DNA of 64,000 nt from Nitrospirota bacterium (GCA_029261135.1 JAJDBX010000074.1:92235-156234); one strand, 5' to 3'; numbered from the stretch's first letter, positions 3,519 to 62,951 are shown. Translations and numbers: made by a program. The notes: a model not told the origin generated them from the sequence alone.

Positions 3519-3543
3519 TCACCGCTCCAGAAAAAACATAGGC

Positions 3544-6329: not shown

Positions 6330-6344
6330 AAGACCCTCTCAACT

Positions 6345-6968: not shown

Positions 6969-7036
6969 CTCCTTAGATCGTATTATGTAGTTTTATTTAT
7001 GTATAGATGGACTCACTGGCGCAATGAAAGACATTT

Positions 7037-42026: not shown

Positions 42027-42098
42027 GCGGGAATAGCTCAGTGGTAGAGCATCGCCTTGCCAAGGCGGAGGTCGCGGGTTCAAATCCCGTTTCCCGCT
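42027..42098 (+). tRNA. tRNA-Gly (GCC)
   Basis: GCGGGAATAGCTCAGTGGTAGAGCATCGCCTTGCCAAGGCGGAGGTCGCGGGTTCAAATCCCGTTTCCCGCT. Anticodon loop CT-GCC-AA. CCA is not encoded. Confidence 0.9.
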
Positions 42099-42126
42099 CT
42101 AATAAATCAATAACTTACAACTTTTT

Positions 42127-43260
42127 TTAGGTTTTTCTATTTTCTGAGTGCAACCACGGTGCAACGGTAGCCTCAGAAGGAGGCGTTGCATCGTCTGCAA
42201 TTGCTTCGACGGCATCTCGTAAGTAACCAGGTGCGAGGTGGGCATATCGGAGGGTCATCCTCAAATTTGAATGACGTAATAGTAGTTGAGCCGCTTCAAT
42301 TCCTTTTCCTGCCATTACAATTCTTGATGCATAATCGTGACGTAGATCATGATATTTAAGATCCTCAATGCCTGTTTCTTTTAATATCTTTCTCCAGGCT
42401 CTTCCAATATTTGCGCCATCAAGAGCTGTCTTGCTTTCAGACAAAAGCACAAATTTTCCTTCACGGGGTAATTTCCAAAGCATATCTTGAACAACCCTAT
42501 TGATCGGAATAAATTTGACCCTGTCATCTGGTTTCTTTGCTTTTCCGTTATAGATTCTTAACTGGTTCAGCGATAAGTCAACGTCAGACCAGAGAAGGTT
42601 TCGGACTTCCCCTTTTCTTAACCCTGATTCACGAGCAAGAAGGCAAGCCGGATAAAGCCAAGAGGGGCCTTGCTTGGCAGCATCTTTGATCTTTATCCAT
42701 TCATCTCCGACAAGGTAACGCACACGTGGAGGAGCATCATCAAGGCTATCTAAATCGGTTGTAGGGTTTGAAGTAGTCATTCCCCATTTTATGGCTTTAT
42801 AAAAAGCAGACTTGATTACCGTTATTTCTCGTTTTACTGTTGAAGGTTGTACGGTCTTGAGTCGGACGGAGATATAATCATCAATAGTTCCCATGCCTAT
42901 TTGATTAAGTGGTTTGTCACTAATAATCTCCAAAAATTGATTTAAAACCTGGTACTCTCTTTTTCCTTGCTTTGCCAGCCGATAACCGTGACGATTCATA
43001 AACACTTCCACCAGTTTGCTCAACCGGGGTGATTTTTGCGGTTGTGGGGTCTGCACCTCCTTTATTTTTCTGTGGAGGATCTCTGAGATCATGGTCTTGG
43101 TGTGAGTTGCTAGCGAGCCGATGGTACCTCGATATCGTTTTCCTCCGCGTTGTGCGGGATATTGGAAATGGTAAGCCCACAAAAGCCCCTTATCTCTCTT
43201 GGCTTGGCTGACCCTGACGGTCACACCCAGTATCTTCAGACTAAATGGCTGTTTTCTCAT
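42127..43260 (-). CDS. tyrosine-type site-specific recombinase (integrase)
   Basis: The track ORF extends to 43341. The ATG at 43260 (MRKQPFSLKILG) has a GGAGG 8 nt upstream and overlaps the upstream stop (ATGA). The catalytic C-terminus is LARESGLRKGE, HDLRHDYASR and LRYAHL. Confidence 0.85.
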   Translation of the reverse strand: MRKQPFSLKILGVTVRVSQAKRDKGLLWAYHFQYPAQRGGKRYRGTIGSLATHTKTMISEILHRKIKEVQTPQPQKSPRLSKLVEVFMNRHGYRLAKQGKREYQVLNQFLEIISDKPLNQIGMGTIDDYISVRLKTVQPSTVKREITVIKSAFYKAIKWGMTTSNPTTDLDSLDDAPPRVRYLVGDEWIKIKDAAKQGPSWLYPACLLARESGLRKGEVRNLLWSDVDLSLNQLRIYNGKAKKPDDRVKFIPINRVVQDMLWKLPREGKFVLLSESKTALDGANIGRAWRKILKETGIEDLKYHDLRHDYASRIVMAGKGIEAAQLLLRHSNLRMTLRYAHLAPGYLRDAVEAIADDATPPSEATVAPWLHSENRKT

Positions 43261-43418
43261 TCTATTTCCTCCACTCTTACTTTTGATATCTTGAGCTGAT
43301 GACCTTCTATTTTGAGTGATACGAAATCGCCGGAATCCCATTTCAATTGATTGATAAGTTCTGGGGGAATAGTGACAACAAGGGTGCCTGAAACAGTGCG
43401 AAGTTTTCTTATGATCAT
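43257..43418 (-). CDS. AbrB/MazE/SpoVT-type DNA-binding protein (53 aa)
   Basis: Below the ORF-track size cut-off. My translation gives MIIRKLRTVSGTLVVTIPPELINQLKWDSGDFVSLKIEGHQLKISKVRVEEIE*, a looped-hinge-helix pattern. Its TGA overlaps the integrase ATG. Confidence 0.6.
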   Translation of the reverse strand: MIIRKLRTVSGTLVVTIPPELINQLKWDSGDFVSLKIEGHQLKISKVRVEEIE

Positions 43419-43505: not shown

Positions 43506-43718
43506 TCAACATTTTTTTTGCCTCATATGATTTGAAATGTATGCACATATATCGCTTGGTCGGTAACGGACGGCTCGGCCCATCTTAACGGATGGAATAT
43601 CTCCTTTTGCTGTTTTTGCTTTAATGGTGGTCTCTTTCAGAGATAATACCTCTGCCACTTCTGACCGTTTCATCAGAGTGGATCTCTTAAACAGACTTTC
43701 CATTAGTAGATCTTTCAT
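43506..43718 (-). CDS. excisionase/AlpA-like helix-turn-helix protein
   Basis: Internal start MKDLLMESLF... at 43718 overlaps the methyltransferase stop (ATGA). The HTH pattern is MKRSEVAEVLSLKETTIKAKTAKGDIPSVKMGRAVRYRPSDICAYI. Confidence 0.6.
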   Translation of the reverse strand: MKDLLMESLFKRSTLMKRSEVAEVLSLKETTIKAKTAKGDIPSVKMGRAVRYRPSDICAYISNHMRQKKC

Positions 43719-44902
43719 GATTTCTTCGTTTCCTCGAACTTGTCTTTTTGTTTTAATCTTGCCCTTATTATTTTCACATATTCGAGGTCTTTCTCTATGA
43801 GAATGCAATCTCTTCCGGTTCTTTTACAGGCAACCCCCGTTGTTCCACTTCCTCCAAACGGGTCAAGCACAATACCGCCTGTTGGGGTTTTGGTGAGTTT
43901 ACAGAGGTATTCCATGAGCTTGACCGGTTTTACAGTTGGATGATGATTATGATGATTGGCCGTTCCTGACCCGTAGGAGACACTCTCTTTGCCGGTTTTT
44001 GTTTTACGCACCAGTGTTGTTATTTTTTCCTCATATCCCATATTTCTTTCTGTTTTGCTCGCCTTTGCACAATAAAAGAATCTTGAAGCACCACCCCTAC
44101 TCACCTCACTTTGTTGATCTAATATTTTTGCCGCTTCTTCGTCTAAGATGATGTTGGAAGGGAAGCGGCCCAAGCTCTGTGGATATCCCTTCCCTTTTTT
44201 TCTTTGAGCAACTATCGGGACATCACTCTTTTTGTATTCCCCCTGTGTCTGATCTTTTTCTCTTGTATCTATCCTCCCCCCGTCAATATTCAATCCGGCT
44301 ACCCCATGTTTTAAAGCATTTTGGGCGTATGTTCCTTCATTTGATTTTACGGCGACGATGATCGGTTCATATGCGGGTTTCAGACCGTGAGACTTCCACC
44401 CGTTCCAATGTTGGGCTTGAGGGGATGCCGGAGCGGTGATATCAAATCCTTTTTTCCTTGATTGAGTGCTACCCACTCCACCCTTACCGACCCCCATAGT
44501 CTTTCTTTCCACTCCCGCCATTTTATCCAACTGTTTGCTAATATCTGTCGCTTTGGGGAACCCAGATCCGTAGAGCCACATGATGCAGTCTTTGAGAATC
44601 CAACCGGACTCTTCAATATGTAGTGCCATTTTGTGTTGTGTTCTTGAACCGGCAAAACACAGCAGTGTCGTACCCGGTTTTGCGACGCGCAGCATCTCTT
44701 TAAATATCTCAACGCTTGGAACATCGTAATCCCATTTTTTGCCCATAAACGAGAGGCCATAGGGCGGATCAGTAATGATCGTATCAATCGAGTTTCCCTT
44801 CATCTTCCGCATGACTTCCAGACAGTCGCCGCGGGTGACTGTTATGTGTGTTTTATGGATGCTTTGGAGTTTTTTGATTTTTCTTTTCATGTTCTGTTTC
44901 AT
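43715..44902 (-). CDS. DNA methyltransferase, N6-adenine/N4-cytosine (beta-class, PF01555-like)
   Basis: 395 aa. Catalytic motif IITDPPYG comes first, then the SAM motif VLDPFGGSGTTGVA near the C-terminus. Confidence 0.85.
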   Translation of the reverse strand: MKQNMKRKIKKLQSIHKTHITVTRGDCLEVMRKMKGNSIDTIITDPPYGLSFMGKKWDYDVPSVEIFKEMLRVAKPGTTLLCFAGSRTQHKMALHIEESGWILKDCIMWLYGSGFPKATDISKQLDKMAGVERKTMGVGKGGVGSTQSRKKGFDITAPASPQAQHWNGWKSHGLKPAYEPIIVAVKSNEGTYAQNALKHGVAGLNIDGGRIDTREKDQTQGEYKKSDVPIVAQRKKGKGYPQSLGRFPSNIILDEEAAKILDQQSEVSRGGASRFFYCAKASKTERNMGYEEKITTLVRKTKTGKESVSYGSGTANHHNHHPTVKPVKLMEYLCKLTKTPTGGIVLDPFGGSGTTGVACKRTGRDCILIEKDLEYVKIIRARLKQKDKFEETKKS

Positions 44903-44924: not shown

Positions 44925-46076
44925 TCATGTATGCCTTCGTATTTTTTTCATTATTTCCTGAACCACGTTTACCGTTACCGCATTCCCTAAAGCCTTATAC
45001 CTCCGTGAGTCACTGACTCCTTTCGTCCACCCGTCCGGGAATCCTTGCAATCGTTCGCATTCGGTCGGTGTGAGCCGTCGGATTTTGGGCGGTTCACCGA
45101 CAAAATGGACATCGGTCGTGTTGTGGTGTTCCGCTATCACGGTTGGCGCGATAAACGGCTGCCTCATACCTCCCTGCATTGTGTTGAGCGTCGGGCTGAT
45201 TCCGCTTGCCCCATATACTCTGTTGTTTGAATGCTTCGGATGATTCATTTGCGCGACCCCAGAATGAGGTCGTCCACACAGCCTCCGCCTCTTTTCAAGG
45301 CGCTCATCACTTCTTTCTTCCGGTGAAATTTTGCTCTGAACCCGTTGCCGTTGCGTTTGTTTCTCCTGTTGTATTCCATCAGCTTTTTCACTCTGGCTTT
45401 GGAGAGGAAATACTTGGGGTCTGGGTGTTCCTCTAAGATGTCCGACAATGAACACCCGCTCCCTGTTTTGGGGGACGCCGAAATTCTTGCTGTTAAGCAC
45501 CTGCCACCCGAGGTCATACCGAAGTTCATCAAGCGTGGAGATGATTGTGTAGAATGTGGCCCCTTGGTCGTGAGATAGAAGCCCTTTGACGTTTTCAAGC
45601 AGTAAAAGGCGTGGTTGTTTTTCCCTGATAATCCGAGCGATTTCAAAAAACATTGTGCCTCTTGTGTCCGCAAATCCCGCCCTTTTTCCGGCAATGGAAA
45701 ATGATTGACAAGGAAATCCTCCGACCAAGAGATCAAAGTCCGGTAATTCTTTTGCGTTGATTTTTGTGATATCGCCATAGTTTTTGTGTGTGAAGTGCCG
45801 TTCATAGATTTGGATTGCGTATGGGTCGATTTCTGAGTAGCCAATACAAGTGAGTCCGTGTGAACAGATGTCAAAGCATTCGCTACATTGTCTTTTCGTA
45901 TTTCCAATTCCTTGTAACCTTTGTTTCGTGTTCTTAATGCACAGCTCTTCATCTGCTTGCTCAATACCGAGTTCAAAACCACCGATGCCGGAAAACAACG
46001 AGAGGTATTTCATCCCTTGCGAATTGGAGGCGTGGTGATTGCGCTCATAGGCGGTTTTTGGGTTATGACGAGTCAT
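44925..46076 (-). CDS. DNA (cytosine-5)-methyltransferase
   Basis: 383 aa. Motif I LFSGIGGFELG, IV GGFPCQSFSIAGKR, VI ENVKGLLS, VIII QNRERVFIVG, IX RRLTPTECERLQGFPDGW and X GNAVTVNV. The variable region looks abnormal (see findings). Confidence 0.8.
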   Translation of the reverse strand: MTRHNPKTAYERNHHASNSQGMKYLSLFSGIGGFELGIEQADEELCIKNTKQRLQGIGNTKRQCSECFDICSHGLTCIGYSEIDPYAIQIYERHFTHKNYGDITKINAKELPDFDLLVGGFPCQSFSIAGKRAGFADTRGTMFFEIARIIREKQPRLLLLENVKGLLSHDQGATFYTIISTLDELRYDLGWQVLNSKNFGVPQNRERVFIVGHLRGTPRPQVFPLQSQSEKADGIQQEKQTQRQRVQSKISPEERSDERLEKRRRLCGRPHSGVAQMNHPKHSNNRVYGASGISPTLNTMQGGMRQPFIAPTVIAEHHNTTDVHFVGEPPKIRRLTPTECERLQGFPDGWTKGVSDSRRYKALGNAVTVNVVQEIMKKIRRHT

Positions 46077-46110: not shown

Positions 46111-49071
46111 TTATCGAATGAAACGGCAGAAATCATAGACCAGCCCCACGGAGACTTTTTGTCTCTCATTTTCTGGGATTTCCTGCTCAATTCGGTCTTG
46201 AATTTCAGTCATTTTCTTTTCTTCTGTCGTGAGCGTGATGACTCGGTGATATCCTGCGTTGAGGCATTTGATAATATTTTGAAGTTCTTGATTAGCTGAT
46301 GTCGTAACAGAAATTTCAACGGCAATTCGCTTACCCTGCTTTTCTATGCCAAGGTCTACCGACTCGCGTCTGCCGGGAATTTGCTCTTCAATAGTCGCTT
46401 TGAAGCCGTTGCTTTCGGCCTGTACATTAAGCACTGACTGCCAGTACCGGTGAAGTTGTCCGCCTTTTCCGCTTAGCGAAACATGTTGCTGAGGAAGGGC
46501 ATCAAAACCCTTTTTGGTGAGGAATAAATACTTGGCTACCCGTGAACCGATTCCGAGGTGGGTTTCCACCTCGGTGAGTAATCCGTTCTCTTTGAGTTTT
46601 CTTTTGAGTCGGTCGCCCATGTAGGCGCTCAAGCTCTGTGCTTTGTACAGCTTTGTCACGGATAAAGTTGGGTTGTTGAATACACATTCTAGAAATGTTT
46701 TTTCCTGGACCAAAAGTGTTTCTATGGATTGGGTTTTCTTTTTTTTAGTGTTTGTGCCAGAGGCGATAGCCGATGTACTGAGCGCCCGTTCTACTTCTTC
46801 CAGTGGTCGGCAGAAATTCTTTCTGGAATGTTTGATGATTTCATCTTTGTAAGATTTCTGCCGGTGTCTCATCTTATGAAGGGACGCGTTGAAAGAATCA
46901 GTTGCCCGTTCCATGCGGATGATGGCCTGTCCGACCGGTAAGTCTTGAAGGTCTTGTGCGGTAAATTGTCCGAGTTGTTTTTGAAGGTAAAGCGCGTCAT
47001 TGACACCGCACCGCAACACAATCAGTGTCCCGATATTTCCCAACAGAGCTGCTGAGATGTCTCTATGGAGATATTCGGTCATCTGTGTCGCCACCACCAG
47101 TGCTACGCGGTATTTTCTGGCTTCAGAAACCAAGCTCGTAATGTTTGCGACATTTGAGCGGGAACCGGCAAAATTTTGGAACTCATCCACGATAAGAGTG
47201 TAGAGTTTTCTTTTGGCTCTGGGGATGGAAGCGCGTGCCATTGTTGCGATCTGAAATTTCGACAAAAGGAAGGAACCGAGCAAAAAAGCTGCGTCTTCAC
47301 CCAAAGCACCCTTGCTGACGTTGGCAATAACTATTTTCCCAGAATTGATCATCTCAAAAAAATCGAGCTTATTTTTCTGAGCAATGATATTTCTCACAAT
47401 GGGATTGTCCACGAATTTTGAGAGCTTATTAATAATCGGATCAATCGCGCCTTTGGGGAGCGCAGAGAATCGGGTCTCCCAAAATGCTCTGATGTCGGGA
47501 TCATCTACCGTTGCAATCACATTCTGTCGATAGTTCGGGTTTAAGAGAAGTCGGGGTATATCTCGAAGAGTTTTCTCGCCGTCCGAATACAACAGCGTAT
47601 TGGTGCAAGATCTCAAAATCCACTCCATCCTTGGCCCCCATCCATCGGCAAAGAACTTTTCAAACGACACGAGCACGTCCGAGCACAACATCTCTTTTTC
47701 CCGCTGGTCTGAGGCATCCAAAATGTTAAAGGCCGGTGGGAAAGAACGATCCGTGAAATTGCAATAGATGGTGTCAGCAAGCCGGTGTTGTGGAATGAGA
47801 GATAAAAATTCTTCTGCGGCATCTCCATTGGGGTCAATGAAGGCGCATCCGTAGCCATTATTTATGATGTTCAAGAAATGAGAAAGAGCGGTGGTCTTGC
47901 CTGTTCCGGTGCCACCAAAGAGGGCGACGTGGCGGGTCAGCCATTCCTCAGAGATTCCGACTTCGGTTTCCACGCCTCTGTGCTGGTTTGTACCTAAAAT
48001 GACCAGACTGTTTTTTGTCGCACGTTTTGGTGCCGGTGCGGAATGCCGCGCGGTTTCGACTTTTTTGGTTAGCGCATCAGCTCCGGGGATATGGGCGAGT
48101 GCAGAAAGCTCCCCGGCGTTTAAGAGCATCCCCGTGGAGCGGTTTGTTCGGGAACGTATGCTTGAAGATGGGTAGGTTTTTTTGAGTGGTATAAACCCAT
48201 TTTCACTTTCATACAGAGTAAAAAAACTCTCCAGTCTGTCTAAGATTGTGTTGGTGGAACCGAAAAGCCGAAGGGAGACTGCAAAGAATGGCTTACTTAC
48301 TTTATGTTCTGCGATTTTTGGAAGATCGGCTATGTCATAGAAAGGAGAACGAGAATTATCAAACTCGTCGCGGGATGCCAGTGCTATGTTATTTTTCCAA
48401 TTCTCTTTCACCGGTGTGAAGAGCACCTGCATTCCTCCACATGCTCCTGTCGGTACACTTTCCAGCGCTCCAATCAGAGAGCGGAAAGGGTCTGTTTTGA
48501 ATTCCGATGTAATGGGAAAGAAATGGGAAGTTTTGAGGCGGTAGCACCTGACAACAAATGGTGAAATAATTTGTGCTTCTTTTAAAAGGTCGGTTGCTGG
48601 ATATACTTCCGATTGCGGAAAATGAGTGAGAGTTTGAGAGATTGCCCCATGCACGTCTTTTACGGGAACTGACAATTGAAACGATATAGTCTCTCTAAAT
48701 GCGATGACCTCAAAGCTCCATATACCTCGCATGGAGAGGGACGCAAGCCACTGCCCCGAGAGATAGGAAGAACCCTTTTCTTCAGAGCTTGGACAAATCC
48801 TTAATGTCTGGAAGGATTGGAAAGTGGCTTTTTCAATAGAAGGTTTCTTTTCAGATTTGTCAAAAAGAAAGTCAAAGAAATGTGGGTGCTTTACCTCATA
48901 GGTAAAGGCAGAAAAAGGAGGCTCAAGCGCTATGGCATAGGGGTAGATGATGGTTCCTCCTTCTCCCCGTTCCATTTCATAAACAACCTTTTGTCGTTGT
49001 TGTTCAAACATATTCATAGCGTTTTCCGTTAAATTAGGATTGTGGTATCGCATCTGGGGCAGACCATCCAT
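46111..49071 (-). CDS. large TraD/VirD4/TrwB-type P-loop ATPase fused to wHTH-like and nuclease-like C-terminal domains
   Basis: 986 aa. Walker A FGGTGTGKTT, Walker B LYTLIVDEFQNF and RKYRVALVVATQ. The ~380-aa N-terminal region carries no motif I recognise. The C-terminus has LKRKLKENGLLTEVETHLGIGSRVAKYLFLTKKG and an E..D..ExS core (IEEQ...ESVDLGIEK...RIAVEISV). Confidence 0.7.
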   Translation of the reverse strand: MDGLPQMRYHNPNLTENAMNMFEQQRQKVVYEMERGEGGTIIYPYAIALEPPFSAFTYEVKHPHFFDFLFDKSEKKPSIEKATFQSFQTLRICPSSEEKGSSYLSGQWLASLSMRGIWSFEVIAFRETISFQLSVPVKDVHGAISQTLTHFPQSEVYPATDLLKEAQIISPFVVRCYRLKTSHFFPITSEFKTDPFRSLIGALESVPTGACGGMQVLFTPVKENWKNNIALASRDEFDNSRSPFYDIADLPKIAEHKVSKPFFAVSLRLFGSTNTILDRLESFFTLYESENGFIPLKKTYPSSSIRSRTNRSTGMLLNAGELSALAHIPGADALTKKVETARHSAPAPKRATKNSLVILGTNQHRGVETEVGISEEWLTRHVALFGGTGTGKTTALSHFLNIINNGYGCAFIDPNGDAAEEFLSLIPQHRLADTIYCNFTDRSFPPAFNILDASDQREKEMLCSDVLVSFEKFFADGWGPRMEWILRSCTNTLLYSDGEKTLRDIPRLLLNPNYRQNVIATVDDPDIRAFWETRFSALPKGAIDPIINKLSKFVDNPIVRNIIAQKNKLDFFEMINSGKIVIANVSKGALGEDAAFLLGSFLLSKFQIATMARASIPRAKRKLYTLIVDEFQNFAGSRSNVANITSLVSEARKYRVALVVATQMTEYLHRDISAALLGNIGTLIVLRCGVNDALYLQKQLGQFTAQDLQDLPVGQAIIRMERATDSFNASLHKMRHRQKSYKDEIIKHSRKNFCRPLEEVERALSTSAIASGTNTKKKKTQSIETLLVQEKTFLECVFNNPTLSVTKLYKAQSLSAYMGDRLKRKLKENGLLTEVETHLGIGSRVAKYLFLTKKGFDALPQQHVSLSGKGGQLHRYWQSVLNVQAESNGFKATIEEQIPGRRESVDLGIEKQGKRIAVEISVTTSANQELQNIIKCLNAGYHRVITLTTEEKKMTEIQDRIEQEIPENERQKVSVGLVYDFCRFIR

Positions 49072-49442
49072 GAGAATATCTTTCCGCAGTTACTACAGGG
49101 GCTGAAGGCGTGTTTCTCGTAATGCGGATTTATCCCGCATGAACATCTATAACGGCTCCTTAGATTCAAAACAAAACCGCACCCGAGACAATACGCGTCG
49201 GAGATGATTAGCTCTTGTAACCAACGCGAAACAGGTATCAGTCGAAAGGTTAGTACATGGAGAACGAAAAGAAATACCACCGCCTCGGCAAGTTGGTTGT
49301 CCTTGATTCGATTAGCTTCAGATGTCCAGACTATGCAGGTAATGAGAATTGCAAGATGGTAAAAAAAAGTGATGATACGCCGCGCTCCCCGTACACTGAA
49401 TATTTGAGGACTGTAACGAGTGGGTTGTTTTTGATATCTCAT
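49029..49442 (-). CDS. membrane protein with two TM helices and a C-terminal double zinc ribbon
   Basis: 137 aa with a GGAGG SD. Hydrophobic segments are IITFFYHLAILITCIVW and AVVFLFVLHVLTF. The C-terminus is CLGCG...CSCG...CSNCG...CPRC. Confidence 0.6.
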   Translation of the reverse strand: MRYQKQPTRYSPQIFSVRGARRIITFFYHLAILITCIVWTSEANRIKDNQLAEAVVFLFVLHVLTFRLIPVSRWLQELIISDAYCLGCGFVLNLRSRYRCSCGINPHYEKHAFSPCSNCGKIFSWMVCPRCDTTILI

Positions 49443-49443
49443 G

Positions 49444-49635
49444 CTAACGCCTCCATCTCATGCGTGGTCTTTGAGTCCTACCGCCACCTGATTTTTGACG
49501 AGTTCTTCCCCAAAGCAATAGAGCCAATCTCTTCACGGAAAAAACCATTGTCCTGTATGCAAGAGGACTCATTTTTTTCAAAACCGTAAGCGGGATGAAC
49601 AAAAAGACAAGCGCTGCTATACAAGTAACTAACAT
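49444..49635 (-). CDS. small single-pass membrane protein with an Arg-rich tail
   Basis: 63 aa. An AGGAGG lies 7 nt upstream of the ATG, inside the NYN gene end. N-terminal TM is MLVTCIAALVFLFIPLTVL. The stop lies 1 nt before the next ATG. Confidence 0.55.
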   Translation of the reverse strand: MLVTCIAALVFLFIPLTVLKKMSPLAYRTMVFSVKRLALLLWGRTRQKSGGGRTQRPRMRWRR

Positions 49636-50225
49636 CGGATTGCCTCCTTAATAGGTCGGAGGCAGTCAAGACCGATTTCAATGTTTGCAGTGATATGTGG
49701 TGAGGTTTTTGCGTTGAGCCGATACGCTGTTGAACCGGCAAGAGACAAGGTCGCAACCTTGCTTTGTGGCCTGATTCGTAAAATTGCTTCTGCGGTATCA
49801 GAAACGAGGTCTCCATCGCCACTTGCAAGAACAACCACGTCATAGTGGGATGAAATTGTGAGCGCTCCTGCGATGAAGCAGAATAGGTTATCGGCATTGC
49901 TTTTCCGCTCAGTGCCTTTATGGGTCTGTACTGTCTGTATGACTTTTGCGTGGGCCGTCCATCCGAGCTTTGAGAACTGTTCGCATCGTGCCGTTTCACG
50001 GGGCGGGTGAGCGAATATAAGGTAGCGAAATGCAGAACCCGTCGCCATGTCAATGGTCTGTCCTAAGCGTTCCCAGGAAATAGAGAAACCGAGATCTCGT
50101 GCTCCCGCATCAATGTTCTGAGCGTCTGAGATCACCAGCACATACTTGTCTCGTATGATTTCCAATGAGCCTGTTTCTTTTGCTATTTCTACGTTTTGCA
50201 TCCGATATTTTGTTTTGTAATTCAT
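49629..50225 (-). CDS. NYN-domain (LabA/DUF88-like, PIN-related) predicted ribonuclease
   Basis: 198 aa. Contains KYVLVISDAQNIDAG and NADNLFCFIAGALTISSHYDVVVLASGDGDLVSDTAEAI, the NYN acidic pattern. Confidence 0.7.
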   Translation of the reverse strand: MNYKTKYRMQNVEIAKETGSLEIIRDKYVLVISDAQNIDAGARDLGFSISWERLGQTIDMATGSAFRYLIFAHPPRETARCEQFSKLGWTAHAKVIQTVQTHKGTERKSNADNLFCFIAGALTISSHYDVVVLASGDGDLVSDTAEAILRIRPQSKVATLSLAGSTAYRLNAKTSPHITANIEIGLDCLRPIKEAIRC

Positions 50226-50307: not shown

Positions 50308-50949
50308 TCAACTGAACATCTTCTGTTTCATGAGAAGAAGATGGAGGATGGCTTCCTCAACGACCTGAACCTTGGTTTTATTTCCCATTGCCCATCCCAT
50401 TGAGGCAGAGAGGTCAATTACAAGCACGGTGGTTTCGGAGCGATGATGGAAACCGTTTGAGTTCCCGTTAGAGGAGAAGTGGGTAAGTGTATTGGTGAGT
50501 TCGCGGAGAGATTTTACCGGAACGAACTTGCCTCTATGTGTGGAAGCTGAAATTTTGCGGAGAGTTGATTCATCGAAGCTGTTCCCAAACCCGATGGTAT
50601 TGATATTAATATGGGATTTGTAAGCACGCTGAACCATAGGCCAAATTCCGCCAGGATTGACATTTGCTTCCCCATCTGAAAGAAGCCAGATCCTCCGCAA
50701 GATTCCACGTGGTGTTTTTTTGCACATCTCAATTCCAACGCGGAGTCCATCGGCGATATTTGTGCGACCCTTAACGTGTTTGTGGAGCCGTTGAGAACGT
50801 TCTTGCAGCCAATGCGCATGAGGCTCGGCAGGAAGAGCGATTTGAAATCCTTCTTCATTGAATCCAACGATGCTAATACGATCCGGTGCATGTACAACGT
50901 ACCGATGGTGTTGATTTGTTTTTTTGTTTTTAAATTTCAATCCAAACAT
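50308..50949 (-). CDS. von Willebrand factor A (vWA/MIDAS) domain protein with apparently permuted element order
   Basis: The track ORF runs to 51234. The ATG at 50949 (MFGLKF) has AAAGGAG 7 nt upstream. The middle of the domain is GRTNIADGLRVG, RRIWLLSDGEANV and ININTIGFG. The DxSxS start motif TTVLVIDLSASMG...KTKVQVVEEAILHLL lies at the extreme C-terminus. Confidence 0.7.
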   Translation of the reverse strand: MFGLKFKNKKTNQHHRYVVHAPDRISIVGFNEEGFQIALPAEPHAHWLQERSQRLHKHVKGRTNIADGLRVGIEMCKKTPRGILRRIWLLSDGEANVNPGGIWPMVQRAYKSHININTIGFGNSFDESTLRKISASTHRGKFVPVKSLRELTNTLTHFSSNGNSNGFHHRSETTVLVIDLSASMGWAMGNKTKVQVVEEAILHLLLMKQKMFS

Positions 50950-50968
50950 GATGTTCTCCTTTTTTGTG

Positions 50969-51011
50969 GAGTGAAGCAGAAACGGGCAGAAACCCCGTCT
51001 CTGCTTCACTC
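50969..51011 (-). promoter_or_regulatory. 18-bp RNA hairpin in the 71-nt spacer between the 88-aa gene and the vWA gene
   Basis: GAGTGAAGCAGAAACGGG (50969-50986) pairs with CCCGTCTCTGCTTCACTC (50994-51011) around a 7-nt loop. The single mismatch becomes a G-U pair only in the minus-strand transcript. No U-tract follows. Confidence 0.45.
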
Positions 51012-51020
51012 GGGAAATTG

Positions 51021-51287
51021 TTAATGATTGGTTCGAACGCCCCGCCACAGCTGAAATGGTCGTCTGTTTTGCCCGACGATCATCCCTTGACGGATGTTGC
51101 AGGCCCCGTGCGGACATGCGTAAATGAAGAGAAAGCCATACCTCTGGTGAGGTACCGTCCCAATGTGCATCATCCGACACGGGAGCAGGTGCTTCATCCC
51201 GTTGTTGCAGAGGAGGGAAAGGCTTTCCATCCACCTTGGTTTATTTATGTTTCTTTGGTACCCATTTTGTTTTTTGAATAGAGCCAT
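51021..51287 (-). CDS. small basic Cys/His-containing protein, unknown function
   Basis: 88 aa. Near-ideal SD AAAGGAGGTAATC-ATG. C27, C37, C58 and C63 plus several His residues. First gene of the minus-strand operon. Confidence 0.5.
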   Translation of the reverse strand: MALFKKQNGYQRNINKPRWMESLSLLCNNGMKHLLPCRMMHIGTVPHQRYGFLFIYACPHGACNIRQGMIVGQNRRPFQLWRGVRTNH

Positions 51288-51448: not shown

Positions 51449-51476
51449 TTTCAGGTGGAAATATTTCCACCTGAAA
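51449..51476. promoter_or_regulatory. perfect 28-bp palindrome in a divergent intergenic region (candidate operator)
   Basis: TTTCAGGTGGAAAT|ATTTCCACCTGAAA is a 14+14 palindrome with no spacer. It lies 80 nt upstream of the ECF S-component ATG and 162 nt upstream of the 88-aa gene ATG. Confidence 0.45.
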
Positions 51477-51555: not shown

Positions 51556-52146
51556 ATGATCATGAAAAGTAACAAGAAAATGTCAACCGCTGTCGTTGTA
51601 TTGATCCCGATTGCGGTGGGGATTAACCTGATTGGGGGAGTTATCGTCAATGCCTTAAAATTGCCAATCTTTCTGGACTCAATCGGCACTCTCATTGTAG
51701 GGATACTTGCTGGACCGTGGATAGGGGCACTTACGGGAATATTGTTTAACTTTGCTGGCGCGGTGATTATTGACCCGGTCTGGGCGTGGTACGCACCGAC
51801 TTCAGCCGTGCTTGGATTTTTAGGCGGATTTTTGGCGTCAAAAGGATTTTTCAAACGAAAATTATATATAGTTGCGCTTGGCGGCGTGTTGGCAGCGGTG
51901 CTTGCAACCATAGTTTCCGCGCCGATTTCGGTGTATGTTTTTGGCGGTGTGGCAGCTCAGGGGCAAGGAGTTATTACAACGTTTCTTGTGGGCATAGGAA
52001 AAAACCTCATGGAAGCGGTTCTGACCGCAGGCATAGTTTCCAACTTGGCGGATAAGGTTATTGTTTACGCGCTGGTCGGAGCACTTTTTGCCAATATTCC
52101 CAAACGTTTCGTTTCTCTTTTTCCTTATGCTAAGAAAACACTTTAG
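51556..52146 (+). CDS. ECF transporter S (substrate-capture) component, substrate unknown
   Basis: 196 aa with a GGAGG SD. About 6 G/A/V/I-rich TM helices. First in an S-T-A-A' gene order. Confidence 0.65.
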   Translation: MIMKSNKKMSTAVVVLIPIAVGINLIGGVIVNALKLPIFLDSIGTLIVGILAGPWIGALTGILFNFAGAVIIDPVWAWYAPTSAVLGFLGGFLASKGFFKRKLYIVALGGVLAAVLATIVSAPISVYVFGGVAAQGQGVITTFLVGIGKNLMEAVLTAGIVSNLADKVIVYALVGALFANIPKRFVSLFPYAKKTL

Positions 52147-52163
52147 TGAGGATAGGGTAACAA

Positions 52164-52940
52164 ATGCAAAAAGGGTTTTATCAAAAAAAGGAAGGTATGC
52201 TGCACAAAATTCATCCGTTTACCAAAGCGGCTGTGGTTTTGTGGCTTGTTTTTACTTCTTTGCTTGTTGATCATCCTGTTTTTTCTATTGCCCTGTTTCT
52301 TGTATTTCTCCTTCCGTTAAGTGTTTTCTCTCGTATTGGTGGACTGCTTCTTAAATATTCTTTTGCTGTTACCATCCCTTTCTTTTTACTCCTTACGGTG
52401 CTGAACGGGTTTTTGTATCGTGGTGATGTGATATTGGAAGTCGGAAATTGGGTGCTGACTGAAGAAGGAGTTTTCGTTTCCCTTCGAATAGCGTCACGCA
52501 TCCTTATCTTCATCTCTGCCTTCCTACTCTACCTTATGAGTACTTCCGTATCTGCGCAGACTCAGGCAATTTTAGAAAAGGGGTTTTCACCAAAAATTGC
52601 CTACGTCCTGTCTGCAATTATTCTTTTTCTCCCCCTCATGCAGGAGAAAGTGGATATGATTTTGATAGCTCAACGGTCGCGCGGGGCAAAAATGGAAGGA
52701 ACGATATTAGAAAAATTGAAAGTCCTACCTTCTATTTTCACCCCTTTACTCCTCCAGTCCTTACTTGAGGTTGGAGAAAGGACGTTTGCGCTTGAAGTGA
52801 GGGGGTTTGACCGCGCGGAACCTCGTACCTTTATTTCAGACCTCAAAGACAGTGCCTTCCAACATTTACTCAGAACATTCTTGATATTTCTTGTTATTGT
52901 GGAGATAGGGTTATGGCTTTTCTTTCGATTCAAAACTTAA
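52164..52940 (+). CDS. ECF transporter transmembrane T component (EcfT/CbiQ family)
   Basis: 258 aa, polytopic. Conserved C-terminal AQRSRG...ALEVRGF coupling-helix motifs. Confidence 0.75.
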   Translation: MQKGFYQKKEGMLHKIHPFTKAAVVLWLVFTSLLVDHPVFSIALFLVFLLPLSVFSRIGGLLLKYSFAVTIPFFLLLTVLNGFLYRGDVILEVGNWVLTEEGVFVSLRIASRILIFISAFLLYLMSTSVSAQTQAILEKGFSPKIAYVLSAIILFLPLMQEKVDMILIAQRSRGAKMEGTILEKLKVLPSIFTPLLLQSLLEVGERTFALEVRGFDRAEPRTFISDLKDSAFQHLLRTFLIFLVIVEIGLWLFFRFKT

Positions 52941-53755
52941 GCTACAGCTACCAGGACGGGTCATGTGCCTTGAGAAATATTGATATGGCTTTAGAAAAAG
53001 GAAAGTTTTATCTGCTAACCGGACCAACAGGTGCGGGAAAAACCACGTTGTGTTTAGTGCTTTCTGGCATCATCCCTCATATTCTTTCGGGCGAAATGGA
53101 AGGCGAACTTCGTCTTGATTCACTTGGGTCATTCTCTCAACGCTTACCCTCTGAATTGATGGGGCATATCGGAATAGTTTTTGATAAGCCCATTACTCAA
53201 TTGTCGGGAATTGAAGAAACGGTGTTTGAGGAGATTGCGTTTGGTTTGGAAAATCTCGGTGTGCCTCAAAAACAGATGCACGAACGTATCGAATCAATAC
53301 TCACCGACTTACGTTTGCAATCACTTAAAGAGCGCTCCCCGTTTTCTTTATCAGGAGGCGAACAACAGAAAGTGGCGATTGCATCAATTCTCGTTATGAA
53401 CCCAAAAGTGCTTATCTTGGATGAGCCGATATCACAATTAGATCCTCGCGGAAGAAGAGAGATTCTACACCTTTTGGGAACACTGAAAGAAAGAGGAGTA
53501 ACCATTCTTTGCGTGGAACACAAAATTGAAGAGGTCAGTGAATATGCCGACTATGTTTTTGTAATGGATAAAGGACAAGTCATTCTTGAGGGAGTCCCAC
53601 AAGAAGTGTTTGCAAGTGATGTTTTAGATGAATATCAAATCGGGACATCCATATATACCAAAGTCGCAAAAGAAGCGGTGAAAAGCGGTATCGTCCCACT
53701 CGGAGATTCCTATCCTGTTACTTTTAATGAAGCAAAAATATGGTTTGCGAGATAG
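52913..53755 (+). CDS. ECF transporter ATPase (EcfA)
   Basis: 280 aa. Walker A GPTGAGKTT, signature LSGGEQQKVAIA and Walker B LILDEP. Confidence 0.85.
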   Translation: MAFLSIQNLSYSYQDGSCALRNIDMALEKGKFYLLTGPTGAGKTTLCLVLSGIIPHILSGEMEGELRLDSLGSFSQRLPSELMGHIGIVFDKPITQLSGIEETVFEEIAFGLENLGVPQKQMHERIESILTDLRLQSLKERSPFSLSGGEQQKVAIASILVMNPKVLILDEPISQLDPRGRREILHLLGTLKERGVTILCVEHKIEEVSEYADYVFVMDKGQVILEGVPQEVFASDVLDEYQIGTSIYTKVAKEAVKSGIVPLGDSYPVTFNEAKIWFAR

Positions 53756-54564
53756 GTATGGACATAGATATCAAAGATCTGTGGTTTTCATATGACCAAA
53801 GTCGGAATGTACTCAGCAATATCAATGTTCACATACGCAGAGGAGAAAAAGTAGCCATTATGGGAGAAAATGGCGCGGGAAAAACGACTCTGGTAAAGCA
53901 CCTCAACGGCATTTTGAAACCCAAAAAGGGAAGCATCATGATTGGGGATGTGGATGCCATATCATCCAGAGTTTCCATATTGAGCAGGCAGGTAGGGTTT
54001 GCCTTTCAGAACCCCGATTCTCAGCTTTTTGAAAAGTCCGTTTGGGCGGAATTGATATTTGGTCCTCGAAACATCGGCATGGATAAAAAAAAGATCCAAA
54101 GTATTGCCATGGAAATTCTTGACCTGCTTGAATTGAAAGACCAGAAAAACTTCCACCCTCATGATCTAGGGTTGCCTCAAAGGAAACTTCTTTCCATCGG
54201 ATCAGTATTGACTATGGATACGCCCATTGTTGTCTTGGATGAACCAACATTAGGGCAGGATTATCAAGGGAAGCAAGTTGTTTCCCACTTGATTAGGTGG
54301 CTTGAAAAGAAAAACAAAACCATTATTTCCATATCGCATGATATTGATTTCTGTTGTGATTACTTTAATCGTTTCCTCATTATGACGGCAGGTGAGATTG
54401 TTTTTGATGGAAATACAGAGAATTTATTACGCGAAGAAGATCTCCTGACCAAGGCTCATTTATCACTTCCTCACTTAACTCGCCTTAGTAATGCTCTTTG
54501 TTTCAATAAACCTGTTGCGAACATGCAGGCTTTTCTGGTAAATTTCCTGAAAATCAAGAATTAA
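53740..54564 (+). CDS. ECF transporter ATPase (EcfA')
   Basis: 274 aa. Walker A GENGAGKTT and Walker B VVLDEPTLGQD. An alternative ATG at 53758 (MDIDIK) lies 2 nt after the upstream stop. Confidence 0.85.
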   Translation: MVCEIGMDIDIKDLWFSYDQSRNVLSNINVHIRRGEKVAIMGENGAGKTTLVKHLNGILKPKKGSIMIGDVDAISSRVSILSRQVGFAFQNPDSQLFEKSVWAELIFGPRNIGMDKKKIQSIAMEILDLLELKDQKNFHPHDLGLPQRKLLSIGSVLTMDTPIVVLDEPTLGQDYQGKQVVSHLIRWLEKKNKTIISISHDIDFCCDYFNRFLIMTAGEIVFDGNTENLLREEDLLTKAHLSLPHLTRLSNALCFNKPVANMQAFLVNFLKIKN

Positions 54565-54652
54565 CTAATCTAAATCTCTACCTCTTCGTAATATTTTTCC
54601 CATCTCAATCTCCCTATTCTGAGCAGTTTCATATAAACGTGAGGATTTTTAT

Positions 54653-55216
54653 ATGGATAAACTTGTCGATCTTTTATACGAAATAGGGATACTTAAAAGA
54701 GTAAAGCGAAGCGGTTGGTGGATCGCGGGTGTGAAAGATCCCGAAACCGTGGCTGAACATTCATTTCGGGCAACAATTATCGGATATATGTTGGCAATGT
54801 TGGAAGGTATAGATTCTAACAAAGTTGTCAAAATGTGCCTCTTGCATGATATTGAGGAAAGCCGTCTTACTGATATTAACAAAATCACATCCGAATATAT
54901 TGACAAAAAACAGATGAAACAGGAGGCTATATATGACCAGGTTTCTGGTCTCCCTTCTCCTATAAAAGAAGAGTTTCTCAATCTGGTTGAGGAGTTTACC
55001 GAACAAAAGACTTCCGAAGCACAACTTGCCAGAGACGCTGATTTACTTGAATGCGCTATCCAGGCAAAGGAATATATCGAGTCAGGACATGAAAGTGCAC
55101 GGGACTGGATTGTAAATATCCGGGGCCTTCTGAAAAATGAAGTATCAAAAAATATGTTAAAAACCATTGAAGAGACCTCTTCTCAGCAGTGGTGGCAAGG
55201 ACTGAAAAAATTGTAG
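54653..55216 (+). CDS. HD_3-family phosphohydrolase (YfbR-like 5'-deoxynucleotidase family)
   Basis: 187 aa. Contains KRSGWWIAGVKDPETVAEHSFRA, LLHDIEESRLTDI and ARDADLLE. Confidence 0.75.
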   Translation: MDKLVDLLYEIGILKRVKRSGWWIAGVKDPETVAEHSFRATIIGYMLAMLEGIDSNKVVKMCLLHDIEESRLTDINKITSEYIDKKQMKQEAIYDQVSGLPSPIKEEFLNLVEEFTEQKTSEAQLARDADLLECAIQAKEYIESGHESARDWIVNIRGLLKNEVSKNMLKTIEETSSQQWWQGLKKL

Positions 55217-55224
55217 GAATCTTT

Positions 55225-56517: not shown

Positions 56518-56605
56518 GAAATTGAGTTTTTATATTAAAGTTTAAGGATTGATTCATATTCCCATTTCTCAATTAAGAAGACCATTGTCATTATTTAGTT
56601 ATAGT

Positions 56606-56645
56606 GCGAATAAAAAAGGGAGAAGATCAATCTTCTCCCTTTCAA
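56606..56645. terminator. bidirectional intrinsic terminator between convergent genes
   Basis: GGGAGAAGA (56618-56626) and TCTTCTCCC (56631-56639) flank a 4-nt loop. A-run upstream and T-run downstream, so the minus transcript ends UUUUUUAUU. Confidence 0.6.
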
Positions 56646-56664
56646 ATACAAGTAATGGTTTAGT

Positions 56665-57141
56665 TTAGTGTTTCTTTGATTCCGGCTTTGCTTCAAGACA
56701 AATTCTGTGAATATAGGGGACTGTCCTCATATCTATTACATCCTCAGGTTCTCCGTATTTTCTCAAAAAACGTTCGAGTAAAAGTAATCCACCACCACAG
56801 TTTGGTTTGATGATAACGCCATCCCTTCTTAAGCATTTCCTTTTTGTTGTTCTCTCATTAAACTCAATGAGATGATATTTCCCATCCCTCTTACTATCAC
56901 GTTCACCCAAGTATTCACTCTGTTTGAAGGCTAAAATATCAGATGCAAGACGGATACAATCTTTACATTGAGTCAAATGCCGCATCTCTCTTCTGTTAAG
57001 GTGTCGTCTGGATTTGTCATAGAGTATATCCACGATTTCCTCCGGGGAAAGATGAATTCTTACGATTGAGCTGAGAAATTCCTGGCTTTTAAATATTTCT
57101 TTGACATTCTCTTTCGAAAACATATTTTCATCAATAATCAT
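56665..57141 (-). CDS. hypothetical protein with an Hx3Cx2C (zinc anti-sigma-like) motif
   Basis: 158 aa with a GGAGAGG SD. Contains RHLTQCKDC, which fits Hx3Cx2C. No adjacent sigma factor. Confidence 0.4.
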   Translation of the reverse strand: MIIDENMFSKENVKEIFKSQEFLSSIVRIHLSPEEIVDILYDKSRRHLNRREMRHLTQCKDCIRLASDILAFKQSEYLGERDSKRDGKYHLIEFNERTTKRKCLRRDGVIIKPNCGGGLLLLERFLRKYGEPEDVIDMRTVPYIHRICLEAKPESKKH

Positions 57142-57332: not shown

Positions 57333-58505
57333 TCATCCAGGTAATGTATCTGCACTGAAGGGTTCTGAGGGCATCCCGTCGATCATTAATTTTAGGTATA
57401 TCCGGTAATTAGGGAGCCGTATGAGGTCTCCGGCTGAAAAAGTCGGGTAGAATTCTTTTTCCAACACTTCCGCATCAGAAAGACCGAGCCGAAACGAAAT
57501 AATCGTTCCGGCATTACCCAAGATCGCATCTCGAATCTGAGGGTCAAGTTGTGAGAGATATTGATGTGCCAATACCATCCCTACCCTGTATTTACGCAGT
57601 TCCGAAAGCATGTTTGCCAGACTGAGCGTTGTGAAACTTTGGAACTCATCCAGGTAGATAAAAAAGTCACGACGGCTCTCTTCCGGCACCTCTGCCCGTT
57701 TGAAGGCGGCAAGACCCAAGCTGGTCACGAGTAGTGATCCGAGAAGGGTTGTCGCATCTTCTCCAATTTTTCCCTTGGATAAATTGACGAGCAATATCTT
57801 TCCTTCATCCATGATCTTTCTCAGATCAAACGAGCTTTTAGGTTGTGACAGGATGCCCGAAAGACGCGGGTTTGCTAGAAACGCCCCTACCTTGTTTTGT
57901 ATTGGCGCGATGGCCTCTTGCCGGAAGCGAGCCGTGTAGCTTTCAAATTCTCGCATCCAGAACCCCCTTACTTGCGGATTACTTACCCTTGCGGCCACAT
58001 TTTTTCTGTAGGCGGCATCTTCCAAAAGTCTCAAGATATCTGACAAGGTCGCTTGGGGCTGTTCAAGCAAAGCCAGAAGCGCATTTCTTAAAATATGTTC
58101 CAGACGCGGCCCCCAAAAATCGGGCCAGAGTTTTTTGAAGGTCTCCAGAAGCCCGGAAGCCGCCAGCGCTATTCGTTCAGGGGGTACACGTTCAAGAGGG
58201 TTAAAAAAGAGCTGTTGTGTGTTATTTGGAATATCAAAATGGATCAGATCCTTTTTCCGATGATCGGGCAGGGTCGTCATGACCTTCTCAATAAGATCCC
58301 CGTGAGGATCAAGGAGCGCAAATCCATTTCCTGATTCAAGATCACGTCGCATCATAGTTTCCATTAAAGTCGATTTTCCTGTGCCTGTTTTTCCAATGAT
58401 GTAGGTATGAGAGTGTCTGTCTATGTGTTTAATCCCAAAAAGCTTTTTCTCTGTGCGGAAGTTTGTCTTGGCAAAATATGTTACAGGGTTGTCGGATCGT
58501 GGCAT
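57333..58505 (-). CDS. stand-alone TraD/VirD4/TrwB-type P-loop ATPase (paralog of the 986-aa protein core)
   Basis: 390 aa. Walker A GKTGTGKST, Walker B FFIYLDEFQSF and RKYRVGMVLAHQ. Colinear with residues ~385-760 of the 986-aa protein (DPxGD, WGPRxExILR, GKIxxxNxSKG, GED). No TM segment. Confidence 0.7.
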   Translation of the reverse strand: MPRSDNPVTYFAKTNFRTEKKLFGIKHIDRHSHTYIIGKTGTGKSTLMETMMRRDLESGNGFALLDPHGDLIEKVMTTLPDHRKKDLIHFDIPNNTQQLFFNPLERVPPERIALAASGLLETFKKLWPDFWGPRLEHILRNALLALLEQPQATLSDILRLLEDAAYRKNVAARVSNPQVRGFWMREFESYTARFRQEAIAPIQNKVGAFLANPRLSGILSQPKSSFDLRKIMDEGKILLVNLSKGKIGEDATTLLGSLLVTSLGLAAFKRAEVPEESRRDFFIYLDEFQSFTTLSLANMLSELRKYRVGMVLAHQYLSQLDPQIRDAILGNAGTIISFRLGLSDAEVLEKEFYPTFSAGDLIRLPNYRIYLKLMIDGMPSEPFSADTLPG

Positions 58506-60307: not shown

Positions 60308-60314
60308 AAAAACG

Positions 60315-60346
60315 AAGAGTCGGAATATATCCGGCTCTTTTTCTTT
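60315..60346 (+). terminator. intrinsic terminator after the Cas4-like gene
   Basis: AAGAGTCGG (60315-60323) pairs with CCGGCTCTT (60331-60339), with one G-U pair and a 7-nt loop. It is followed by TTTTCTTT. Confidence 0.6.
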
Positions 60347-60500
60347 GCACTACAGGTTTTCTCGACATCTAACATATTGATTTTTATAAGTTTCCTTTGC
60401 AAAGGTTTTGATATAGGAAAAAGGAACCTTTAAACGACAAAAGAAAGAAAAATCCTATCCCCCTGTCAAAAGGGAACCTTCTCTGTAAAATATAAACTGT

Positions 60501-62933: not shown

Positions 62934-62951
62934 TTTATTACTCCTATATTT

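Follow-up and report, generated by a model that had tools for sequence, protein, structure and literature searches.

A coupling-protein-type ATPase with a VirB4-like N-domain and a nuclease-fold tail: a candidate backbone gene of an integrated element in a Nitrospirota bacterium

What is the role of a 986-amino-acid (aa) protein that joins a DNA-translocase-type ATPase to a nuclease-like C-terminus and is encoded next to two DNA methyltransferases (MTases)? The gene lies on the minus strand of a 64,000-nucleotide (nt) stretch of DNA from a Nitrospirota bacterium (GCA_029261135.1, JAJDBX010000074.1:92235-156234), the whole of which is called the window below. An earlier note on this gene had proposed an ATP-dependent restriction component. 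The comparisons described here point elsewhere: with a probability of roughly one half, the gene encodes a coupling-type DNA translocase that belongs to the backbone of an integrated element, is anchored to the membrane in trans via a VirB4-like N-domain and has a tail that processes the DNA of the element, the two MTases being cargo. The open reading frame (ORF) and its parts are as follows.

46111..49071, minus: ATPase-nuclease ORF, uninterrupted, 986 aa from the first ATG; DUF8128 N-domain, type IV coupling protein (T4CP)-type ATPase, winged helix and PD-(D/E)xK-fold unit
48016..49017, minus: N-domain, residues 19-352; PF26449 (DUF8128), with a fold like that of TrwK/VirB4
46837..48015, minus: P-loop ATPase core, residues ~353-745; PF10412, PF01935, PADLOC mad8 and HerA, PHROG 5156
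47893-47916, minus: Walker A of the ATPase core, G386-T393
47182-47187, minus: Walker B of the ATPase core, D629-E630
46519..46710, minus: winged helix-turn-helix (HTH), residues ~788-851; three helices and a two-strand wing in the AlphaFold2 model, MarR-family matches in Foldseek and weak MarR matches in sequence
46114..46470, minus: PD-(D/E)xK-fold unit, residues 868-986, assigned by its alpha-beta-beta-beta-alpha-beta topology, Foldseek and conservation

The ORF is a genuine member of a very large family and not a chance ORF, as judged from full-length homologues at 41-45% identity and from a profile search of 1.84 billion cluster representatives, which returned 25,573 matches at E<=1e-3 and 6,853 at E<=1e-30. 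Translation of the plus strand of 46111-49071 gave many stops. The true start is probably M19 (49017), giving a product of 968 aa, because the family profile aligns from residue 19 and because a start at M19 falls 12 nt past the stop codon of the preceding ORF, while one at M1 would overlap this ORF by 43 nt. All motifs quoted in the earlier note were located in the translation: FGGTGTGKTT at 385-394 (Walker A), IDPNGD at 412-417, DEFQNF at 629-634 (Walker B), RKYRVALVVATQ at 652-663, MLLNAGELSALAHIPG at 315-330, and IEEQ, SVDLGI and AVEISV in the C-terminal part. Its statement that the protein has no hydrophobic segment also held: a Kyte-Doolittle scan (19-residue window) gave no transmembrane (TM)-grade segment in the 986 aa, the sole borderline stretch (672-690, score 1.71) lying within the ATPase core.

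Coupling proteins are membrane-anchored receptors that pass relaxase-bound DNA to a type IV secretion channel. A core of this type, as had been suggested, was recovered by Pfam, in which PF10412 (TrwB_AAD_bind) matched at 2.3e-11 with 43.6 bits against a cut-off of 20.5, together with DUF87 (PF01935). The FtsK_SpoIIIE family matched weakly or marginally, the TrwB and TraG/TraD families scoring higher, and PF12696 and PF02534 also match relatives of the protein and its local paralogue (see below). The CedD, HerA, VirB4 and TraD models of NCBIfam all matched below threshold. PADLOC gave mad8 at 1.4e-19 (core only) and HerA, and PHROG 5156, to which no function is assigned, covered residues 255-779 at 1.4e-63, next to weak matches to terminase-family PHROGs. 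The best matches in a sequence search of the PDB were HerA, TrwB and DotL, all weak; with the family profile, HerA chains came first (8xau, 8wiv, 8j4u), of which at least one was deposited as anti-phage-associated. G386, K392, T393, D629, E630, R652 and Q663 are invariant in close homologues. By these criteria the core belongs, in intact form, to the FtsK/HerA/VirD4 superfamily, its closest branch being that of the coupling proteins.

The N-domain, of about 380 aa and without a recognised motif according to the earlier note, corresponds to Pfam DUF8128 (PF26449), which is annotated on a 100% identical database protein (P0001) and on homologues. An AlphaFold2 model of residues 19-352, built from 23 sequences, had a mean predicted local distance difference test (pLDDT) of 90.6 and a predicted template-modelling score (pTM) of 0.89. 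In a Foldseek search of the PDB with this model, all eight significant matches were TrwK/VirB4 chains of the R388 type IV secretion system (T4SS), with E values of 1.4e-5 to 2e-3, probabilities of 0.99-1.0 and TMq of 0.42-0.45; the next-best match had a probability of about 0.2. As no other P-loop ATPase was among these matches, the matched part of TrwK/VirB4 is most likely the VirB4-specific N-terminal domain, which docks on small membrane proteins; the Foldseek output came without target coordinates, so this placement is our own. The domain thus resembles, at the level of the fold, a known part of a T4SS, a relationship that the earlier note had itself set against its restriction proposal.

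A VirB4 signature was not found at the level of sequence: TIGR00929 scored 23 bits against a cut-off of 643, and PF03135 gave no match in 23 family members even at E<=10. The N-domain fold also occurs in gp156 and gp155 of Bacillus phage G and in phages JL and Slash (BFVD), and DUF8128 is encoded as a stand-alone protein of 396-511 aa as well. A 442-aa ORF of the window (55189-56517) was tried as such a stand-alone copy and rejected on testing. No mention of DUF8128 was found in the searchable literature.

The ATPase gene is immediately preceded by two genes for small membrane proteins.

49029..49442, minus: 137-aa zinc-ribbon protein; two hydrophobic helices, then a double zinc ribbon at the C-terminus (CxxC...CxC...CxxC...CxxC)
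49444..49635, minus: 63-aa single-TM protein with one helix and a C-terminal SGGGRxxRP

Homologues of the zinc-ribbon protein (30-46% identity) are found directly upstream of the ATPase in all seven contexts with upstream DNA, namely the window and the related loci L001, L002, L005, L009, L174 and L175. The small single-TM protein holds the same position in the window, L001, L002 and L005, a 59-aa ORF in L174 being a possible fifth case. Neither the zinc-ribbon protein nor the 63-aa peptide could be assigned convincingly to a Pfam or PHROG family. VirB3 anchors VirB4 at the membrane, and the virB3 gene precedes virB4 (PMC12102498). By analogy, the 137-aa and 63-aa proteins probably supply the missing membrane anchor in trans. 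A homologue encoded on an Embleya plasmid has an N-terminal TM helix of its own, and its residues 115-369 correspond to DUF8128 (hhalign probability 94%, E 1.2e-7).

The C-terminal part had been described as a winged-helix-like stretch followed by a degenerate PD-(D/E)xK core. Modelling of residues 775-986 with AlphaFold2 (17 sequences) gave a pLDDT of 91.4 and supported both folds. For the nuclease unit Foldseek returned the Bax1 nuclease (1.8e-4), AF1548 (5.5e-4, root mean square deviation 3.3 A over 119 columns), EcoT38I and Cdn1/Can2, and for the winged helix many MarR-type regulators. Three full-length relatives match PF06054 (CoiA nuclease-like domain) weakly, presumably via the nuclease unit. 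The word "degenerate", on the other hand, did not stand. E895, D906 and E919 (the last in E-x-S) are kept in 140 of 140 relatives, and in the same set H874 is kept in 139, E929 in 137, K935 in 130 (with Arg in a further six), Q878 in 126 and N932 in 124. By this measure the site of the nuclease unit is under strong constraint, and "degenerate" undersells it. K935 and E929 lie on the helix that follows and are conserved in ~93-98%; K935 is an alternative to the canonical lysine, and some PD-(D/E)xK families have a migrated lysine. The unit is present on nearly all of the best-scoring 150 representatives (~1000 aa each) and absent from Patescibacterial homologues. The variant P0023 joins the C-terminal module to an HTH_17 domain of the excisionase type.

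Some distant relatives of the protein lie in a conjugative setting. A tblastn search of plasmids gave 161 records, from Streptomyces, Bacillus, haloarchaea and Sulfolobus. On B. subtilis plasmid NRS6116_2 a homologue of 913 aa without a TM segment is followed at once by a replication-relaxation gene, and then by genes of the TcpD and TcpE families and a gene for a large ATP-binding protein. The order on the Embleya plasmid is PrgI-family protein, VirB4-like ATPase, homologue, replication-relaxation gene and NlpC/P60. These two homologues are 22-28% identical to the window protein. By gene order, the plasmid homologues occupy the position of the coupling protein in T4SS clusters, T4CP genes typically adjoining relaxase genes (PMC12857230). 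Replic_Relax (PF13814) is a PD-(D/E)xK family that is usually fused to an HTH (PMC3424549) and constitutes the MOB_C class of relaxases (PMC5357655; PMC12857230). The plasmid gene order, ATPase and then HTH plus PD-(D/E)xK, is the order of the domains within the window protein, which suggests that its tail may be a fused relaxase-like module. We hold this as an analogy, because sequence and profile similarity are lacking and a separate Replic_Relax gene is present in the related elements L001 and L175.

In the window the genes on the minus strand are ordered VWA (von Willebrand factor A), NYN-like, 63-aa peptide, zinc-ribbon, ATPase, C5 MTase, N4/N6 MTase, HTH_17 and tyrosine integrase, after which comes a tRNA-Gly gene on the plus strand. 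The features outside the ATPase gene and its two membrane partners are the following.

50308..51234, minus: VWA-domain protein (PF00092, 2.3e-9); real start probably internal
49629..50225, minus: NYN-like protein, 198 aa (PF01936, 1e-4, 23.3 bits, under the cut-off of 24.2)
44925..46076, minus: C5 cytosine DNA methyltransferase (PF00145, 1.2e-88)
43715..44902, minus: N4/N6 DNA methyltransferase (PF01555, 4.6e-33)
43506..43808, minus: excisionase-type HTH_17 ORF (PF12728, 3.1e-8); start probably internal, overlaps the end of the N4/N6 MTase ORF
42127..43341, minus: tyrosine integrase abutting tRNA-Gly (PF00589, 3.3e-21); 31% identity to the L091 integrase
42027..42099, plus: tRNA-Gly (GCC), likely integration site (ARAGORN)
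57333..58505, minus: core-only T4CP-like ATPase, 390 aa (PF10412, PF12696, PF02534), without N-domain, tail or TM segment

The last of these is the local paralogue mentioned above and has 37% identity to the core of the big ATPase. Its orthologues (47-56% identity) were found in five of nine contexts with DNA; in L091, L071, L005 and L009 their distance to the big ATPase is 7-10 kb, so both ATPase genes of the window probably belong to one element. This element probably sits at the tRNA-Gly and runs from ~42.1 kb to beyond 58.5 kb. The cargo between the two ATPases varies, with CBASS in L071, ArdA in L091 and an energy-coupling factor (ECF) transporter in the window.

Comparison of the related loci separated what recurs from what varies. 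The ATPase of L091 runs straight into HTH_17 and integrase genes, and ArdA and a core-only T4CP-like ATPase come later in the locus. In L002/L003 the integrase gene comes directly after the ATPase and is followed by a tubulin/TubZ-like gene, and on the P0006 contig an HTH gene and an integrase gene follow the ATPase. In L071, from a soil metagenome-assembled genome, the stretch 2323-7018 between the big and the core-only ATPases holds a CBASS pair (SMODS cyclase and TIR-STING effector) and a large serine recombinase. Upstream of the ATPase, L005 carries a core-only ATPase, a DnaG-type primase, DnaJ-domain genes and VWA; L175 carries Replic_Relax, a DnaG-type primase, NYN, VWA and an N6/N4 plus C5 MTase pair; and in L001 a Replic_Relax gene lies 7 kb upstream. 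VWA genes are thus present in L005/L006 and L175 as well, the window VWA being 30% identical to the L175 copy. MTases accompany the module in only two of ten distinct contexts, the window and L175, in a different order and on opposite sides. Since the L091 ATPase runs directly into HTH_17 and the integrase, the MTases look inserted in the window. The recurrent partners are the small membrane proteins, excisionase/integrase, core-only ATPase, primase, MOB_C relaxase and ArdA. The cargo and the class of the recombinase differ between the elements, but a pair of ATPase genes frames them, and the big ATPase therefore looks like a backbone gene of a mobile element.

Some further features were noted in and around these loci. 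DnaJ-domain proteins cluster with VWA beside the module in L005/L006 and L009, the window equivalent being VWA plus NYN-like. The opposite strand between the two ATPases of the window (51556-57141) encodes the S, T and two A components of the ECF transporter, in an operon, and an HD_3 protein. Next comes a stretch of low GC (33-37%), whose two ORFs, of 442 and 158 aa, have no match in any family; the region may be cargo of the element. A perfect 28-bp palindrome (TTTCAGGTGGAAAT/ATTTCCACCTGAAA) at 51449-51476, intergenic between VWA and the ECF transporter operon, could be a terminator or an operator. Past the second ATPase, 59492-63989 is defence-like, with a PDDEXK_1/Cas4-like nuclease (271 aa) and an 810-aa HD-CE plus HATPase_c protein; an ORF with an AAA_13/LmuB-like segment in this cluster ends near the window edge.

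Beyond plasmids, the family is overwhelmingly Patescibacterial in the genome collection, with at least 577 confirmed stretches. In Patescibacteria (loci L009-L088, for example L014 and L042) the gene comes after a sigma-70-region-4/HARE-HTH protein (50 of 88 loci) and SecD/SecF (34 loci); SecA, RecJ-like and AlaRS-like genes are also neighbours. The gene is often split into a DUF8128 ORF of ~430 aa and an ATPase ORF of 530-600 aa. The 5,713 T4CP homologues of VirD4 type that have been reported from Patescibacteria lie for the most part at a distance from virB4 and may have been exapted (PMC12102498), and the Patescibacterial relatives found here appear to be these homologues. Two longer forms were seen: a 1199-aa form (P0009, L005 10001-13600) with an extra C-terminal extension that carries a sigma-70-region-4-like HTH, and a 1159-aa Patescibacterial form (P0013, L092) with a NUDIX domain, beside groES/groEL.

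These observations could be accommodated by the following mechanism. On the model of TrwB, FtsK and HerA, the core would form a hexameric ring that pumps DNA. The N-domain would dock on the small membrane proteins as VirB4 does on VirB3, so that the anchor, which classical coupling proteins have in cis, would be given in trans. The winged helix would recognise the DNA of the element and the nuclease unit would nick or cut it, making the substrate for translocation; in the distant plasmid homologues this recognition and cutting role would fall to the MOB_C relaxase (HTH plus PD-(D/E)xK) encoded by the very next gene. The element might borrow the channel of a co-resident conjugative element, or might export DNA in a minimal, TraB-like manner. 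The two MTases would be cargo between the ATPase and the xis-int genes and could plausibly shield the element DNA from restriction.

Several results weigh against this reading. The position of the canonical (D/E)xK lysine (+2 from E919) is Ser in most members and Ala or Phe in the others, and nuclease activity of the predicted unit is therefore not assured. The tail need not be the relaxase, because L001 and L175 carry a separate Replic_Relax gene; moreover, the tail gave no Pfam match to Replic_Relax at E<=10, hhalign returned E values of 0.09-0.4 (with alignments of 1, 3 and 4 sequences and with the 140-sequence alignment of the nuclease unit), and the Replic_Relax hidden Markov model matched 0 of the 194 collected proteins. 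The family is not tied to conjugation, as homologues occur in Bacillus phages G (gp156), SPO1 (gp27.4) and SP-10, including the lytic SPO1 type, and as those of Patescibacteria are conserved genes of the chromosome, next to SecDF and remote from virB4 (PMC12102498). In the window, the ATPase and the two MTases are co-oriented with gaps of 34 nt (ATPase/C5 MTase) and 22 nt (C5/N4-N6 MTase) and no terminator was detected between them, so they may be co-transcribed here; promoter and terminator scans did not rise above shuffled expectation. A second att copy was not found, either by a repeat search of the 3' end of the tRNA-Gly, with 20-23-mers at up to 3 mismatches or with exact k-mers down to 10 nt, which leaves the limits and mobility of the element unproven. 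No T4SS channel genes and no recognisable relaxase are present in the 64-kb window, and transfer is for this reason not demonstrated. A clt-like or oriT-like repeat array, or any oriT candidate, was not found there either.

Of the alternatives, the one that survives best is that the gene is methylation-independent defence cargo, in which a membrane-tethered HerA/FtsK-like translocase with a fused nuclease catches incoming DNA of phages or plasmids at the membrane, comparable to HerA-nuclease pairs. The HerA and mad8 matches in PADLOC, the HerA chains that head the PDB matches of the family profile, the union of a translocase with a conserved nuclease, the membrane partners and the phage relatives all fit such a role, and the islands do hold defence genes (CBASS in L071, HD-CE/HATPase and a Cas4-like gene at 59-64 kb of the window). 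We nevertheless consider it unlikely. The module co-varies with xis/int, primase, MOB_C relaxase and the second ATPase even when the cargo and the class of recombinase differ, which is the behaviour of backbone rather than cargo; the P0023 tail is fused to an excisionase domain, the distant homologues fill the coupling-protein slot of T4SS clusters, and no PADLOC model spans the whole protein.

A bolder form of the translocase reading, ranked below the defence role and likewise improbable, is that the single-TM peptide, the two-TM zinc-ribbon protein and the big ATPase form a self-contained minimal machine for DNA export, in which a trans-anchored motor with a self-cutting, relaxase-like tail moves the element from cell to cell without a dedicated T4SS. 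If this is so, Chloroflexota and other poorly cultured phyla would harbour a new class of integrative elements, and the chromosomal copies of Patescibacteria would be a derivative that was exapted and has no tail.

A motor for maintenance of the element is more doubtful again. Here an FtsK-like protein would act in segregation, dimer resolution or replication-coupled processing of the element once excised, its winged helix reading sites specific to the element and its nuclease resolving intermediates. FtsK-gamma and Streptomyces TraB show the same layout, an ATPase and then a C-terminal winged helix; a tubulin/TubZ-like gene and an integrase gene lie beside the L002 homologue, L005 and L175 have primase genes, and in Patescibacteria the homologues are conserved on the chromosome. 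The FtsK_SpoIIIE match, however, is weak in comparison with those to TrwB and TraG/TraD, the plasmid homologues lie inside conjugation clusters beside relaxase genes, and the segregation of a small element needs no membrane tether.

The restriction proposal, according to which the adjacent MTases are cognate, the motor tracks along DNA and the nuclease cuts it when unmodified, has become very improbable. In its favour are the close spacing of the three co-oriented genes without a detected terminator, the MTase pair beside the module in L175, the strong conservation of the nuclease-fold residues and the mad8 match, mad8 being part of the methylation-associated system MADS. Yet eight of the ten distinct contexts have no MTases, and a restriction subunit could not be maintained without its modification partner. 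Where MTases do occur, in the window and in L175, neither their order nor their side agrees, and the direct run of the L091 ATPase into xis-int makes those of the window look like an insertion. The motor is of the FtsK/HerA/VirD4 type and not of the superfamily 2 or McrB type, the other MADS genes are not adjacent, and the conserved membrane partners are left unexplained. MADS is an eight-gene operon, mad1-mad8 (bioRxiv 10.1101/2023.03.30.534895), and membership of it was rejected: only the ATPase core matches mad8, and the neighbours match neither mad1 nor mad3-mad7. Finally, a role as the ATPase that packages or injects the genome of a cryptic virus-like element is scarcely credible, for although PHROG 5156, the weak terminase-family matches, the homologues in phages G, SPO1 and SP-10 and the N-domain fold in gp155/gp156 of phage G point that way, capsid, portal, tail and lysis genes are absent from the window island and all related loci examined, the phage proteins are themselves without known function and the terminase matches are at the P-loop level only.

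The preferred reading, that of a trans-anchored translocase in the backbone of an integrated element, has consequences beyond this locus. The protein belongs to a large, mostly metagenomic branch (thousands of sequence clusters) in which a domain of VirB4-like fold would replace the anchor while dedicated small membrane partners are kept, and one sub-branch has fused a conserved nuclease-fold tail. If this tail acts on the DNA of its own element, recognition, cutting and pumping would be combined in one polypeptide, on elements without a secretion channel. This has implications for the movement of small integrative elements in phyla without conjugation studies, and for the role of the thousands of orphan T4CP genes in Patescibacteria. 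It also shows that a motor-nuclease fusion with an MTase neighbour is insufficient to call a restriction system.

How does the protein compare with known systems? It is like the T4CPs (VirD4/TraG/TraD, with TrwB of R388 as the archetype) in that its P-loop core matches PF10412 and in that distant homologues with DUF8128 hold the T4CP slot beside a relaxase gene in Gram-positive T4SS clusters. Unlike T4CPs, it has no N-terminal membrane helix but a 330-aa DUF8128 domain in its place, its C-terminus is a winged helix with a nuclease-fold unit, and T4SS and relaxase genes, to which the plasmid homologues are linked, are absent from the 64-kb window. With VirB4 (TrwK) and VirB3 it shares an N-domain fold that matches TrwK specifically, small membrane-protein genes immediately upstream, as virB3 is before virB4, and a soluble protein that is presumably anchored in trans. 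It differs from them in lacking the VirB4 sequence signature and in having zinc-ribbon partners unrelated to VirB3; in addition, a true VirB4 coexists with the DUF8128 protein in the Embleya cluster.

The tail resembles the MOB_C/Replic_Relax proteins (PF13814; pAD1 TraX and CloDF13 MobC) in the succession of an HTH and a PD-(D/E)xK fold (PMC3424549). In plasmids these proteins are encoded by the gene right behind that for the ATPase, an order that mirrors the fused domains of the window protein. The conserved residues of both include a His on helix one, acidic residues on the strands and, on the next helix, a Lys. Neither sequences nor profiles show significant similarity, however, and some related elements have Replic_Relax as a separate gene. 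Streptomyces TraB and FtsK have, like the window protein, a core of the hexameric-translocase superfamily and, C-terminal to it, a winged helix with which repeats specific to the element could be read, and the window gene lies, as that for TraB does, on a small integrative element without a T4SS. In contrast, TraB and FtsK have membrane helices of their own and no nuclease domain, the FtsK_SpoIIIE match of the window protein is marginal, and the clt-like repeats are missing.

The HerA-nuclease pairs (HerA-NurA, HerA-DUF4297 and Sir2-HerA) and mad8 also bring a HerA/FtsK-superfamily ATPase together with a nuclease. The window protein differs from them in having no detected HAS-barrel signature, the matches covering P-loop segments or the bare core, in a nuclease that is fused and not separate, and in its membrane partners and its linkage to a mobile-element backbone. 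The combination of domains, the dedicated zinc-ribbon membrane partner and the setting on an element without a channel appear to be undescribed in the searchable literature. The parts are all of known kinds: a T4CP-type core, a VirB4-like N-domain that is a catalogued DUF, a winged helix and a PD-(D/E)xK fold.

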